From IMG/VR virus record IMGVR_UViG_2541047790_000003: 10,589 nucleotides of DNA; one strand, given 5' to 3'. The notes under the pieces are model-generated. The model had not been told where the DNA came from, ran no database searches, and saw only the letters and a program-made list of their open reading frames with translations. The DNA is from a virus (Duplodnaviria > Heunggongvirae > Uroviricota > Caudoviricetes). This document shows, one piece after another, positions 2,935 through 6,685 of the stretch. How positions within the stretch are numbered: the stretch's first letter is position 1; every line of letters starts with the position of its first letter. Position numbers and translations under genes: made by a program.

Positions 2935-3084
2935 GCCTAACGCCCCCAAAAAACACATAACCAATTGTATTTATTTTAAAATTAATAGATACAACTCGCT
3001 AAACATCGCAATTCATATCTCTCGATCACCTTCCCAATCCACACAACCCTGCAAAAAATAAATCTATATAAAAAACATACAGAT

Positions 3085-3155
3085 AACCATCTGCGGTGAT
3101 AAATTATCTCTGGCGGTGTTGACATGAATACCACTGGCGGTGATACTAAGCACAT
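3085..3155 (+). promoter_or_regulatory. Left operator OL3-OL2-OL1 with promoter pL
   Basis: OL3 AACCATCTGCGGTGATA (3085-3101), OL2 TATCTCTGGCGGTGTTG (3105-3121), OL1 TACCACTGGCGGTGATA (3129-3145); -35 TTGACA (3119-3124) and -10 GATACT (3142-3147). Matches lambda pL/OL with a few substitutions. Confidence 0.9.
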
Positions 3156-3187
3156 CAGCAGGACGCACTGACCACCATGAAGGTGAT

Positions 3188-3217
3188 GCTCTTAAAAATT
3201 AAGCCCTGAAGAAGGGC
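3188..3217 (+). promoter_or_regulatory. nutL N-utilisation site (boxA and boxB)
   Basis: boxA GCTCTTAAAAATT (3188-3200) and boxB hairpin GCCCTGAAGAAGGGC (3203-3217) in the pL leader. Confidence 0.8.
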
Positions 3218-3374
3218 AGCATTCAAAGCAGAAAGCTTTGGTGTGTGTGATACGAAACGAAGCATTGGCCGGAAGTGCGAATCCGGATTAGCTGCCAATG
3301 TGCCATTGCGGGGTGTTTTCGTTCAGGAATACGACTCCCACACACAACCAAAGCTAACTGACAGGAGAATCCTG

Positions 3375-3701
3375 ATGGATGCACAAACACGCCGCCGCGA
3401 ACGTCGCGCAGAGAAACAGGCTCAATGGAAAACAGCAAACCCCCTGTTGGTTGGGGTAAGCGCAAAACCAGTTAACCGCCCTATTCTCTCGCTGAATCGC
3501 AAACCGAAATCACGAGTAGAAAGCGTACTGAATCCGATAGACCTTACAGTGCTGGCTGAATACCACGAACAGATTGAAAGCAACCTGCAGCGTATTGAGC
3601 GCAAGAATCAGCGCACATGGTACAGCAAGCCACGCAGTGAAATGGGTGTGACTTGTGTTGGTCGCCAGAAAATGAAATTAGGCAGCAAACCACTTATTTG
3701 A
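3375..3701 (+). CDS. N: Antitermination protein N
   Basis: ATG at 3375 with AGGAGA RBS. Translation MDAQTRRRERRAEKQAQWKTANPLLVGVSAKPVNRPILSLNRKPKSRVESVLNPIDLTVLAEYHEQIESNLQRIERKNQRTWYSKP... includes the arginine-rich boxB-binding N-terminus; about 90% like lambda N from memory, with a divergent C-terminus. The ORF-track start at 3243 is an upstream extension. Confidence 0.95.
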   Translation: MDAQTRRRERRAEKQAQWKTANPLLVGVSAKPVNRPILSLNRKPKSRVESVLNPIDLTVLAEYHEQIESNLQRIERKNQRTWYSKPRSEMGVTCVGRQKMKLGSKPLI

Positions 3702-3712
3702 GAGGAATTAAT

Positions 3713-4336
3713 ATGTCATCAATCCGCTTAACTACGAGAATGAAAGAGGAAATCGCTCGTAACGCTTTAATTAAGTCTGGGGTTTTCACTGAACTTGAAG
3801 AAGTAACAAAGTTAAAGAACCAGCTTGCACTTGACGCCAGAGTTATTGCGTTTGGCGGGAAAAAGAAAACTGAGGAAGTTGATCAGTTATCATCCAAGTT
3901 GGTAGCTATAAGTGAAGAACTTGAAAAGATGGGATGTTCATTTTACTCATACGATGTTCGTTCTACTTCAATTTATCTGACTGCATCTGGCAGAAGGATT
4001 GGATGGCATTCATATGGGAAAGACGGCAACGGCGAAGATATATTGCTCCCTACTCCGAACAAAGATAAATGCATGTTTAGCGCAGAACACGAAATAACAA
4101 AAAGGTTTGATGAAATCTGCGCATTGCAACAAAAACTTGAAGCCAAGAAAAAGGATATCGAATCAAATGTATGGGCTGCTTTGAACTCAGTCACAACAGT
4201 TAAGCGACTTATTGAGGTTTGGCCTGAAAGCAAAGAATTGCTACCAAAAGAAGCAGATAAAGCAAGTACAGCACTTCCTGCTTTACGGGTAGAAGATTTG
4301 AATAAGATGATTGGACTTCCTTCCGAGGCCGCATAG
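3713..4336 (+). CDS. Hypothetical 207-aa protein (cargo gene immediately after N)
   Basis: ATG at 3713 with GAGGAA 6 nt upstream, 11 nt after the N stop; 207 codons of protein-like composition (MSSIRLTTRMKEEIARNALIKSGVFTELEEV...); low GC by eye. No family recognised. Confidence 0.8.
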   Translation: MSSIRLTTRMKEEIARNALIKSGVFTELEEVTKLKNQLALDARVIAFGGKKKTEEVDQLSSKLVAISEELEKMGCSFYSYDVRSTSIYLTASGRRIGWHSYGKDGNGEDILLPTPNKDKCMFSAEHEITKRFDEICALQQKLEAKKKDIESNVWAALNSVTTVKRLIEVWPESKELLPKEADKASTALPALRVEDLNKMIGLPSEAA

Positions 4337-4351
4337 TCGGCCTTTATTTTT
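4326..4351 (+). terminator. Rho-independent terminator overlapping the stop of the 207-aa gene
   Basis: AGGCCG (4326-4331) pairs with CGGCCT (4338-4343) around loop CATAGT, followed by TTTATTTTT. Confidence 0.7.
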
Positions 4352-4399
4352 GGCATAAACAACAGAATAAACACTGCACTGAATTATTTGAGGTGAGAT

Positions 4400-4870
4400 A
4401 TGACAAAATCACGGAGCGTACCTTTTCCTGAATCAGAAACTGAACATAATGGAATGCCTGTTTTCTGGAGATTCCAAGCGACAGTTGAAGAAGATGGAAT
4501 CAAAATATTCGCACTTCAATATATAGCTTTTCATCAGACAGAGCATTATGCATGGTTGGTTCCTGCGCATTGGATTGTTGATTTTAAACCAGCACCAAAT
4601 CAGTGGTTACAGGAATGGAAACAAAGGAGAAATAGATATGCAATTAAGAAAGTAGCAAAAAATGCAGAAAGATCTTTTGCATTCCCAACGAAGAAACTTG
4701 CTATTGAAAGTTTATTGCGTCGGAAGAAATACCATTTAATGAGAATAAAACAAGATTTGGCTGTTGTATCAACTCTTGTTGATGGGATGAAAAATATTGA
4801 TACATCAATACCAGATATTGAATATAACTTTGGACACAACCAAGAAACAGAAAATTGGGTATTTTATTAG
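4400..4870 (+). CDS. Hypothetical 156-aa protein (second cargo gene)
   Basis: ATG at 4400 with GAGGTGA RBS 4390-4396; 156 codons (MTKSRSVPFPESETEHNGMPVFWRFQATVEEDGIKIF...), basic C-terminal half; low GC by eye. No family recognised. Confidence 0.8.
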   Translation: MTKSRSVPFPESETEHNGMPVFWRFQATVEEDGIKIFALQYIAFHQTEHYAWLVPAHWIVDFKPAPNQWLQEWKQRRNRYAIKKVAKNAERSFAFPTKKLAIESLLRRKKYHLMRIKQDLAVVSTLVDGMKNIDTSIPDIEYNFGHNQETENWVFY

Positions 4871-4882
4871 TACGAATAAGCA

Positions 4883-4914
4883 CTGTGTATTCATTCCAAC
4901 GAGTGAATACACGG
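4883..4914 (+). other. Strong hairpin / inverted repeat without a T-tract
   Basis: GTGTATTCA (4885-4893) pairs perfectly with TGAATACAC (4904-4912) around a 10-nt loop, extendable by two flanking pairs; not followed by a U-run. Confidence 0.45.
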
Positions 4915-4974
4915 AGCAATGTCGCTCGTAACTAAACAGGAGCCGACTTGTTCTGATTATTGGAAATCTTCTTT

Positions 4975-5000
4975 GCCCTCCAGTGTGAGGGCGATTTTTT
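4975..5000 (+). terminator. Rho-independent terminator
   Basis: GCCCTC (4975-4980) pairs with GAGGGC (4987-4992) around loop CAGTGT, followed by GATTTTTT. Confidence 0.75.
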
Positions 5001-5020
5001 ATCTATGAGGATATGAATAG

Positions 5021-5389
5021 ATGTCAAACATCAAAAAATACATCATTGATTACGACTGGAAAGCATCAATAGAAATTGAAATCGACCATGACGTAATGAC
5101 AGAGGAAAAACTTCACCAGATTAATAATTTCTGGTCAGACTCTGAATACCGACTCAATAAACACGGCTCTGTATTAAATGCTGTATTAATCATGCTGGCG
5201 CAACATGCTCTGCTTATAGCAATTTCAAGCGACTTAAATGCATATGGTGTTGTGTGTGAGTTCGACTGGAATGATGGAAATGGTCAGGAAGGATGGCCTC
5301 CAATGGATGGTAGCGAAGGAATAAGAATTACCGATATCGATACATCAGGAATATTTGATTCAGATGATATGACTATCAAAGCCGCCTGA
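5021..5389 (+). CDS. Ea10-like early protein (122 aa); identity tentative
   Basis: ATG at 5021 with GAGGA upstream; 122 codons, the same length as lambda Ea10, in the same relative position of the pL operon; acidic C-terminus. Assignment is from position and weak recollection. Confidence 0.6.
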   Translation: MSNIKKYIIDYDWKASIEIEIDHDVMTEEKLHQINNFWSDSEYRLNKHGSVLNAVLIMLAQHALLIAISSDLNAYGVVCEFDWNDGNGQEGWPPMDGSEGIRITDIDTSGIFDSDDMTIKAA

Positions 5390-5423
5390 GAGCGTTTTTA
5401 AAGAATACAACGAAGGAGGATAT

Positions 5424-6392
5424 ATGAGTGAAGTAACAGATTTAGTTGTTATTGAAAAATCAAATGCAATGACTGTATTTCAGTCTGCCGACCAGATTGA
5501 AGAAATCCTTCAAAAGGTTGAACGTGAAGTTATGTCCTTTGTTCCTGATATCACAACGGCAAAGGGCAGGAAGGAGATCGCTTCTCTGGCGTATAAAGTT
5601 GCGCAGACGAAAACATATCTCGATGGTCTTGGCAAAGACCTTGTTGCTGAACTGAAGGAAATTCCAAAGCTAATTGATGCCAACCGCAAGACAGTGCGTG
5701 ATCGCCTTGATGAGCTGAAAGCCAAGGCACGCCAGCCTCTTACTGATTATGAGGAAGAACAGGCGCGGATTAAAGCCGAAGAAGAAGCTAAGGCAGCAGC
5801 TGAAGCTCTCGCAAAGCAAATTGAGTCTGACCATGAAATAGCTATTTTGATGGATCGCGAATTTGACCGCCAAAGAGAAGAGGCAAGACTCAAAGCGGAG
5901 CAGGAAAAGCGAGAGCATGAAGAACGCTTAAAAAGAGAAGCTGAAGAGAAAGCCAGAGCAGAAGCCGAAGCAAAGGCAAAAGCCGAAATTGAAGCAGCAG
6001 CAAGGCGAGAAGCAGAAGCTAAGGCCGCTGCGGAACGAGCAGAGCGTGAACGCATTGAAGCCGAGCAACGAGCACAGCGCGAAGCAAAAGAGGCAGCAGA
6101 ACGAGCTGAAAGAGAAAAGCAGGCAGCAATTGAAGCAGAACGCAGAAAAGCACAGGAGGAGGCTGAACAAATCCGTCGCGATGCTGAAGCAAAAGAGCAA
6201 GCCAGAATAGCAGAAGAAAAAAGAATCAAGGACGAAGAAGAGCGTAGAGCAAAGGATAAAGCTCACCGGAAAGAAGTTAATAACAAAATACTTGCTGACC
6301 TTATCAAGGTTGGCGCATCAGAAGATGTTGCTAAAAATATCATAACAGCCATCGTAAAAGGCGAAGTATTCGCAACAAAAATAACCTACTAA
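5424..6392 (+). CDS. Hypothetical 322-aa protein with a long E/A/K/R-rich central helix
   Basis: ATG at 5424 with AAGGAGGA RBS. Globular-looking N-terminus (about 110 aa), then about 180 residues made almost entirely of E, A, K, R and Q (EAEAKAKAEIEAAARREAEAKAAAERAERERIEAEQRAQREAKEAAERAEREKQ...), then a short C-terminal domain. Confidence 0.85.
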   Translation: MSEVTDLVVIEKSNAMTVFQSADQIEEILQKVEREVMSFVPDITTAKGRKEIASLAYKVAQTKTYLDGLGKDLVAELKEIPKLIDANRKTVRDRLDELKAKARQPLTDYEEEQARIKAEEEAKAAAEALAKQIESDHEIAILMDREFDRQREEARLKAEQEKREHEERLKREAEEKARAEAEAKAKAEIEAAARREAEAKAAAERAERERIEAEQRAQREAKEAAERAEREKQAAIEAERRKAQEEAEQIRRDAEAKEQARIAEEKRIKDEEERRAKDKAHRKEVNNKILADLIKVGASEDVAKNIITAIVKGEVFATKITY

Positions 6393-6416
6393 TAAAACCA
6401 ACATAAGGAACCACCC

Positions 6417-6548
6417 ATGATTTACGCAATCGCGGGAGGCGCTCGCATGGGTGCCTTCCAACTAAATGAATCTTTACTTGAACGAATCACCCGTAAATTA
6501 CGTGACGGATGGAAAAGAGTTGAGGTCTTATTATGCGCAATGAAATAG
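6417..6548 (+). CDS. cIII: CIII-like protease (FtsH/HflB) inhibitor, 43 aa
   Basis: ATG at 6417 with AAGGAA RBS 6405-6410. Translation MIYAIAGGARMGAFQLNESLLERITRKLRDGWKRVEVLLCAMK shares YAIAG and the core ESLLERITRKLRDGWKR with lambda CIII as I recall it. Below the ORF-track length cutoff. Confidence 0.8.
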   Translation: MIYAIAGGARMGAFQLNESLLERITRKLRDGWKRVEVLLCAMK

Positions 6549-6685
6549 CCATCAATCACCAGATGCTTCGTGCTGCACAGAACAAAGCAGTAATAGCCAG
6601 ATTTATTGGTGATTCCAAAATGTGGCTTGAAGCAAATAAAGCGATGAAATCAGCTATCAACCTTCCGTGGTATCGCAGGAAATGA
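6533..6685 (+). CDS. kil: Kil-like small protein (host cell-division inhibitor), 50 aa; tentative
   Basis: ATG at 6533 with GAGGT 6 nt upstream, overlapping the cIII 3' end; 50 codons MRNEIAINHQMLRAAQNKAVIARFIGDSKMWLEANKAMKSAINLPWYRRK. Sits immediately downstream of cIII, as kil does in lambda and P22. Confidence 0.5.
   Translation: MRNEIAINHQMLRAAQNKAVIARFIGDSKMWLEANKAMKSAINLPWYRRK

Follow-up and report, generated by a model that had tools for sequence, protein, structure and literature searches.

PreS (also called LPR1) of phage lambda is an Hfq-dependent small RNA (sRNA) seen as bands of ~88 and ~68 nucleotides (nt), and its 3' end consists of a GC-rich stem and poly-U, matching the terminator tL2a (bioRxiv 10.1101/2024.10.31.621285). 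It is a product of the lytic cycle, absent in the lysogenic cycle, that increases dnaN translation and aids lambda DNA replication (bioRxiv 10.1101/2024.10.31.621285); it is also covered in a review (PMC12197685). When phage accessory genes were screened systematically, the 'Ral' accessory region was a top-scoring accessory hotspot, with counter-defence genes, and it holds ral and orf184, a trigger of the gop-beta-cII abortive system (Silas et al.). Here, we analyzed a 10,589-nt stretch of DNA from the IMG/VR virus record IMGVR_UViG_2541047790_000003, referred to as the window. It comprises the immunity and early-left (pL) region of a lambdoid, imm-lambda-like Escherichia coli ST131 prophage, with pL transcription on the + strand. 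The subject of this analysis is a gene for a protein of 156 amino acids (aa) at 4400-4870, together with the hairpin and terminator that follow it.

In the window, 4382-4879 is a single-gene accessory cassette placed between the antiterminator gene N and the conserved PreS/tL2a locus, and our analysis suggests that it is pL-driven and encodes a binding protein for lytic host takeover or counter-defence. We give this reading a probability of about 0.6. The gene is already known, as HK97 gp45 and 933W L0079, but unstudied, and the hairpin and terminator have already been published as PreS/tL2a. The initial annotation of this DNA, which described an unknown low-GC cargo gene with its own hairpin and terminator, was sound as an observation and partly wrong in its interpretation. 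What novelty is left appears to lie in an uncharacterized, widespread phage protein family with a confidently predicted fold that lacks a solved relative.

Conservation of the 156-aa gene

The coding sequence at 4400-4870 (+) starts with ATG and is preceded by a ribosome-binding site, GAGGTGA, at 4390-4396 (+), with good spacing to the start codon. Both features had been proposed in the initial annotation and were present, as was the low GC content it described (34.8% vs 44.1% for the window, with 23.7% at third codon positions). The gene is 97.6% identical in DNA sequence to 933W L0079 and HK97 gp45, the protein is 97% identical, and its membership of PHROG 1636 extends over the full length (E = 8.1e-110, residues 1-156 vs profile 1-156). 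Many Stx1- and Stx2-converting phages carry the gene, including phi24B, BP-4795, Min27, and P27. A survey of 5426 complete E. coli genomes placed it at 834 sites in 598 genomes (~11%). Prophages of Pectobacterium, Brenneria, Rosenbergiella, Cronobacter, and others have full-length homologues with 53-83% identity, the lower values of 53-63% being found in other Enterobacterales, and the homologues formed 33 clusters, with 40 invariant columns in an alignment of 23 sequences. Compared with the 933W and HK97 copies, the ratio of nonsynonymous to synonymous substitution rates (dN/dS) was 0.12, which shows purifying selection. Judged by its sequence, 4400-4870 is a genuine conserved lambdoid accessory gene.

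The copy in the window differs from its best-known relatives at three residues, with R5, N21, and I137 in place of W5, D21, and T137 in HK97 and 933W. Codon 5 (4412-4414) reads Arg (CGG) here vs Trp in at least 90% of the family (TGG in 933W and HK97). The R5/N21/I137 allele is common to ST131 prophages that are 100% identical over the region.

The hairpin and terminator belong to the lambda PreS locus

The hairpin at 4883-4914 and the terminator ending at 5000 were both found where the initial annotation had placed them. Folding with RNAfold gave the hairpin a core of 12 base pairs (bp) at 4885-4912 with the loop CAAC, extendable to 14 bp. The terminator (4973-5000, +) has its stem at 4973-4994 and a T-run at 4995-5000. 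The 135-nt spacer that separates the gene from ea10 has a predicted folding energy of -45.8 kcal/mol (z = -4.95), and 0 of 200 shuffled sequences were equally stable. Terminator-like sites as such were not enriched, with 5 in 3000-6600 vs 3.3 ± 1.8 expected; the two terminators at the gene are therefore taken as real because they are conserved and not because of the number of sites.

In an alignment of the window, lambda, and 933W, 4880-5000 showed no difference at any base from the ral-ea10 spacer of lambda, seed region included. The terminator is thus tL2a, the 3' end of PreS, and the hairpin (+) stands directly 5' of PreS as part of the lambda spacer and not of the cassette. If the ~88 nt are measured upstream from the U-tract of tL2a, PreS is placed at approximately 4913-5000 (+), and the processed form of ~68 nt would begin near 4933. 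The 5' end at ~4913 coincides with the 3' foot of the 4883-4914 hairpin, which may act as a processing or stabilizing structure for PreS. The PreS region occurred at 3199 places in 2237 of the 5426 E. coli genomes, ~4 times the 834 places of the 156-aa gene, so that about three quarters of the PreS copies have no such gene. Since the hairpin and terminator mostly occur without the gene, they are backbone and not cargo, and the proposal that the gene has its own hairpin and terminator had to be given up. Sequence and folding of the spacer revealed no terminator between the stop codon of the gene and PreS.

Across 80 IMG/VR loci, the hairpin is too conserved for a covariation signal. No Rfam family was found anywhere in the window at the gathering threshold, and PreS is not in Rfam 15. 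Other candidate RNAs were considered and rejected. The anti-sRNAs AgvB and AsxR belong to Stx phages, where AgvB and the convergent EcOnc sRNAs sit at the PR' moron site and not in the pL operon; the AgvB/EcOnc paper makes no mention of ral or ea10. Likewise, the paper on the Pas sRNA does not mention this region. A 29-codon open reading frame (ORF) with an ATG start at 4919-5008 (+) lies wholly within PreS/tL2a, and its phi367 equivalent is annotated as a hypothetical protein (L012 3580-3675). Such an ORF most probably reflects an artefact of annotation on top of the sRNA.

The upstream terminator and the cassette joints

The terminator upstream of the gene (4325-4352, +) has its stem at 4325-4344, with the arms GAGGCCG/CGGCCTT, followed by TTTATTTTT. 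The stop codon of the preceding gene, which encodes a 207-aa Nmad5-family protein, is located in its loop, and its right arm and T-run are common to the sequence after lambda ral. It overlaps a recurrent inter-cassette linker, GGCCTTTATTTTTGGCATAAACAACAGAATAAACACTGCACTG, at 4329-4381 (+). In lambda, the ral stop codon is followed by GGCCTTTATTTTTGGCATAAATAACAGAATAAACACTGCACTG and then straight by the hairpin; this string recurs at 4329-4381 after Nmad5, and there the Nmad5 3' end provides a better left stem arm. The linker (GGCCGCATAGTCGGCCTTTATTTTTGGCATAAACAACAGA...) was seen after ral in lambda (L002), and in L021, L030, L066, L072, L083, and L084 it comes after the 156-aa gene. In other prophages, the 156-aa gene is followed by the linker and then by another small gene or by the hairpin. 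The linker stands between interchangeable small genes of the N-to-PreS slot, which form arrays of one to four cassettes, and it looks like the recombination joint of this hotspot. The initial annotation had reasoned that genes bracketed by terminators are independently acquired morons. This argument fails for the upstream terminator, which is half of a linker also found after ral and after the 156-aa gene itself.

Alignment with lambda showed that the cassette of the 156-aa gene, 4382-4879 (+), is missing from lambda at the exact point. A left copy of the linker tail, GAATAAACACTGCACTG (4365-4381, +), and a right copy, GAATAAGCACTG (4874-4885, +), form an imperfect direct repeat either side of the cassette. 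The break between the Nmad5 module and the 156-aa module is at 4381/4384. At the left edge of the cassette, AATTATTTGAGGTGAGATATG, the string TTATTTGAG is common to the last codons and 3' end of N, and in 933W-type phages the TTATTTGAGGTGAGATATG junction includes the N stop codon. The gene begins 9 nt past the N stop codon in 933W and HK97, and it abuts N in most phages. We attribute this mosaic arrangement to recombination at short shared strings.

Arrangements were counted from the end of N to the hairpin in the 68 IMG/VR loci that have both anchors. The 156-aa gene stood alone in 48 of these; Nmad5, the linker, and the gene followed one another in 4, as in the window, and ral, the linker, and the gene did so in 3. 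The gene was followed by the linker in 3 loci and by other cassettes, usually after the linker, in 10. Phage phi367 has ral and the 156-aa gene side by side. Across 80 IMG/VR loci, the PreS hairpin is nearly always downstream of the gene, and the upstream side varies among the N 3' end, Nmad5, ral, and others. More distant homologues keep their place within the early-left operon. One with 42% identity is located between N and kil in two lambdoid contigs, and homologues with 58-63% identity head the same operon in Rosenbergiella and stand just before xis-int in Pectobacterium and Brenneria. Neither PreS nor the linker was found near the distant homologues outside E. coli-type phages.

Predicted expression from pL

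The pL promoter at 3119-3147 (+; TTGACA-17-GATACT), inside lambda-type oL operators, is the only + strand sigma-70-like site in 3000-6600, and no + strand promoter-like site was found between it and 6600. With no promoter of its own, the gene is therefore taken to be transcribed from pL. Downstream of pL, the window has the nutL boxB hairpin GCCCTGAAGAAGGGC at 3203-3217 (+), read from the sequence as the loading site for N antitermination, and the gene for a lambda-type N of 108 aa at 3375-3701 (+; Pfam N36, E = 7e-26). The palindrome at 3203-3217, which we take to be lambda nutL boxB, was scored as a minus-strand terminator-like site in the terminator scan. Given pL, nutL boxB, and N of the lambda type in the window, N-antiterminated pL transcripts would be expected to read both cargo genes, as the initial annotation had supposed.

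From this arrangement, the gene should be expressed in lytic growth, upon infection or induction, and not in the repressed lysogen. It would be delayed-early here, since it lies past the linker terminator and would be reached by N antitermination, and immediate-early in HK97 and 933W. PreS would in effect form the 3' untranslated region (UTR) of the transcript of the 156-aa gene. A weak minus-strand promoter-like site at 4861-4889 (TACACA-17-TAAAAT, 9 of 12 matches) overlaps the left arm of the hairpin and is antisense to the 156-aa gene. Sites of this kind numbered 3 vs 6.4 expected in shuffled sequence, and this one is probably due to chance.

Protein family and predicted fold

The protein has a mass of 18.6 kDa and an isoelectric point (pI) of 9.3, and both of its ends are acidic. 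The initial annotation had noted a basic C-terminal half. Residues 79-156 do have a pI of 9.65, but the charge is concentrated in 76-120, which has 15 lysines or arginines in 45 residues (among them the invariant R79, K84, K87, R91, R107, K109, and R115) and a pI of 11.4, and the last 36 residues are acidic. The remark that the protein belongs to no recognizable family holds for Pfam, NCBIfam, and PADLOC, where neither the protein nor 55 relatives gave a family, but not for PHROGs, where it is a full-length member of PHROG 1636. In PADLOC-DB 2.0, only a Cas1_II fragment was matched, at E = 0.018, and nothing consistent was found among the 55 relatives. An exhaustive profile search widened the family to 87 cluster representatives at E < 1e-3, mostly of 135-155 aa, and the related PHROGs 1636, 13631, 25384, and 28215 are all listed as of unknown function. 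Literature searches for L0079, HK97 gp45, the accession numbers, and phrog_1636 returned nothing relevant.

A first AlphaFold model, made from 23 sequences, had a predicted local distance difference test score (pLDDT) of 68 and gave only long-helix matches. With an alignment of 92 sequences, the AlphaFold2 model reached a pLDDT of 95 and a predicted template modeling score (pTM) of 0.82. This model runs from a long beta-hairpin (19-46) through a third strand (50-55), two short helices, and a further strand (83-86) to a helix of 33 residues (98-130), and it ends in a conserved tail at the C terminus. No solved structural relative of the confident model was found, and sequence searches of the PDB, with the single sequence and with the family profile, gave nothing below E = 0.04. 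In BFVD, the structural relatives are uncharacterized proteins from a taxonomically diverse set of phages of Proteobacteria and Bacteroidota, and we presume that several of these phages are virulent. The wide family showed no conserved residues of catalytic type; only G33, T47, K87, and A101 are invariant or near-invariant, and conservation is highest in the basic strand-loop-helix at 84-119. Because no conserved residues look catalytic, a binding role is favored over an enzymatic one.

Relation to Nmad5

The 156-aa gene follows the Nmad5-family gene at 3713-4336 (+; PF18757, E = 9e-72; RefSeq annotation). Single missense mutations in nmad5 of Dhillonvirus permit escape from the Tmn defence, and nmad5 was reported to be toxic to clone (PMC11846954). 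The Anti-Tmn protein of Dhillonvirus was considered as a member of the same family as the 156-aa protein and rejected, as it has a different topology and is restricted to Dhillonvirus.

Among the complete E. coli genomes, Nmad5 was found at 229 places in 211 genomes, and the two genes were adjacent in 48 genomes. The check suggested in the initial annotation, whether the 207-aa and 156-aa genes travel together, thus had a negative outcome for close homologues. Its description of the two as separate, independent cassettes agrees with this count and with the module break between them. The consistent adjacency of a two-gene system was not seen either in E. coli (48 genomes) or among the IMG/VR arrangements (4 of 68), and the E. 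coli counts argue against an obligate link of the 156-aa gene with DNA modification. Genes related to DNA modification or regulation stand beside some distant homologues: phrog_887 in L004 (839-1591), a ParB-like gene in Salmonella phage NX263 (L097, 3989-4798), and Rha-YopX-Nmad5 genes in Vibrio phage PvVp04_M (L007, 6460-8080). These neighbors give a weak hint of a DNA-modification or regulation theme around the distant homologues.

Function and alternative explanations

The cassette fills the variable accessory slot of the pL operon between N and PreS. We propose that its protein would be made early in lytic growth from pL, and that this compact alpha/beta protein would bind nucleic acid or a host protein, with its very basic segment at 76-120. 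Binding is the most likely activity and also the weakest step of the proposal. The protein might then act in host takeover or counter-defence, as a positional analogue of lambda Ral. This is suggested by the early expression from pL, the position equivalent to that of ral, the occurrence of the fold in diverse phages, and the absence of the family from defence databases; a role in defence or exclusion is less likely. Several points weigh against the proposal. The functional class of the protein is deduced from its position, timing, and composition. The same slot in lambda also holds sieB, an exclusion gene, and position alone therefore cannot separate counter-defence from defence. The basic segment might just as well serve as an interface for protein-protein or coiled-coil contacts, the allele in the window might be impaired by R5 at the near-invariant W5 position, and the lack of a promoter comes from a scan for the sigma-70 consensus only. 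The 200 genes tested by Silas et al. do not include the 156-aa gene, and orf184 of that study, considered as the same protein, is a different, acidic protein of 107 aa. A further-reaching version of the proposal, which we hold only tentatively and consider doubtful, is that the protein is the founding member of a phage-specific family that is widespread (PHROGs 1636, 13631, 25384, and 28215), with a fold that has no solved relative and represents a new early binding factor for host takeover or counter-defence that is swapped through the ral slot.

The low GC content, the terminator-like sites on both sides, the bona fide defence gene BstA nearby in the prophage, and the location of sieB in the lambda slot would all fit a defence moron that was acquired independently, has one or more terminators of its own, and is expressed from the prophage to exclude phages, alone or with the 207-aa gene. 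Both terminators are conserved backbone or linker sequence, though, and neither the gene nor its 55 relatives matched PADLOC. Since no promoter-like site precedes the gene, and since in most phages it is joined to the end of N within the repressed pL transcript, a defence moron expressed in the lysogen is unlikely. Prophage defence would also make no sense in those phages with structural relatives that are believed to be virulent. The adjoining genes in the window raise the idea that the protein is a partner of Nmad5 or of DNA-modification enzymes, for instance the subunit that gives a base-modification pathway its DNA binding or its specificity. This idea draws on the 29%-identical homologue in PvVp04_M, 1 kb from the Nmad5 gene, on a 51%-identical homologue directly before the phrog_887 gene ('queuine tRNA-ribosyltransferase'/DpdA-like), and on the NX263 homologue, which is followed by the ParB-like gene. 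We regard it as quite improbable, since only 48 of 834 copies of the gene adjoin Nmad5, only 48 of 229 Nmad5 copies precede the 156-aa gene, HK97 and 933W have no Nmad5 beside the gene in the 6.5-10.6 kb stretches examined, and early regions are generally rich in DNA-modification genes.

Coupling of the gene to PreS, either through a protein that binds RNA and acts on PreS or on PreS targets, or through a cassette required for PreS biogenesis, would account for the hairpin lying at most 160 nt downstream in ~76 of 78 informative E. coli-type loci, mostly directly after the gene. The basic segment is compatible with RNA binding, and processing of the 3' UTR of the gene's mRNA would yield PreS. 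We nevertheless think such coupling very improbable, given that lambda makes functional PreS without the gene, that ~3/4 of PreS copies have no copy of it upstream, and that neither PreS nor the linker lies near the homologues from outside E. coli-type phages. Finally, the lack of a Pfam family and the W5R change at a near-invariant position could be read as signs of a spurious ORF or a decaying frame in an AT-rich spacer. This is refuted by full-length conservation across genera, and the dN/dS of 0.12, the confident single-domain AlphaFold model, and the 87 distant relatives at E < 1e-3 speak against it too.

The preferred reading of a pL-driven cassette reassigns the gene from a defence moron expressed in the lysogen to an early lytic accessory gene. 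It sits in the very first transcript upon infection or induction and is a reasonable, though not urgent, candidate for function screens. For annotation, where a lambdoid accessory gene is followed by a conserved hairpin and terminator, these should be taken for the PreS/tL2a locus and not for part of the gene, and the terminator before the 156-aa gene should be taken for a shared inter-cassette linker.

Other features of the prophage

The order along the window is cI, BstA, pL/nutL, N, Nmad5, the 156-aa gene, PreS/tL2a, and ea10. The stretch 3360-5400 has 100% identity with the chromosomes of ST131/O25:H4 strains of E. coli, among them ZH063, SaT040, and CU568-3. The cI repressor (1159-1872) is a protein of 237 aa with S24-peptidase and HTH domains. 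The BstA abortive-infection homologue (1991-2896, +) has 301 aa and matches PHROG 6287 (E = 5e-135) and PADLOC BstA (E = 3e-106); a terminator follows it at about 2909-2931. BstA thus stands between cI and pL in a prophage with lambda-type pL, nutL, and N, a position at which lambda has rexAB. The layout of BstA and then N is repeated in a second lambdoid contig (L106).

The conserved backbone gene ea10 (DUF2528; 5021-5389, +) was identified through PF10800 (E = 2e-47) and the 933W and lambda annotation. Beyond it lie more early-left genes, of the Erf and Abc2 type. A 322-aa protein of PHROG 1376 (unknown function) is encoded at 5424-6392 (+). Its central ~200 residues are nearly pure E/A/K/R and coiled-coil-like, and this composition explains why the AT skew at 5700-6300 is so extreme, reaching up to 0.72. 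A relative of this protein comes after the 156-aa homologue in Rosenbergiella (L006 978-1949), and the neighborhood is therefore partly syntenic across genera.

Comparison with known systems

Morons in the sense of Juhala and Hendrix are reportedly extra genes with their own promoter and terminator, often of deviant GC content and expressed from the prophage, with HK97 gp15 and lambda bor and lom as examples. The 156-aa gene resembles them as an extra, low-GC single gene that is present or absent between conserved neighbors (absent in lambda). It differs in that no promoter of its own was detected, in that its flanking terminators are shared backbone or linker sequence, and in that its expression, from its place in the operon, is expected to be lytic only.

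The closest likeness is to HK97 gp45 (NP_037731) and 933W L0079 (NP_049479), which also have 156 aa, are 97% identical, lie on the same strand in the same operon, and are followed by the same PreS hairpin. In those phages the gene abuts N, whereas in the window the Nmad5 cassette and the linker terminator are placed between. Compared with lambda ral, the gene occupies the same accessory slot from N to PreS, would share early transcription from pL, and can be followed by the same linker. Ral has 66 aa and no similarity in sequence or size, and the Pfam scan of the 156-aa protein was empty, so the likeness is one of position and timing only.

The lambda PreS/tL2a locus is matched at 4880-5000 with 100% identity, directly before ea10 and with the GC-rich stem and U-tract. 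The gene upstream of it is ral in lambda and the 156-aa gene in the window, and the expression, Hfq binding, and dnaN regulation shown in lambda only would be expected to carry over to the window. The joints also have a counterpart in the boundary sequences of lambdoid modules, as the short conserved linker at 4329-4381 recurs between interchangeable genes at recombination joints. Such boundary sequences between lambdoid gene modules were reportedly described by Clark et al. 2001 for HK620, and 'bsq' features are annotated in CUS-3.

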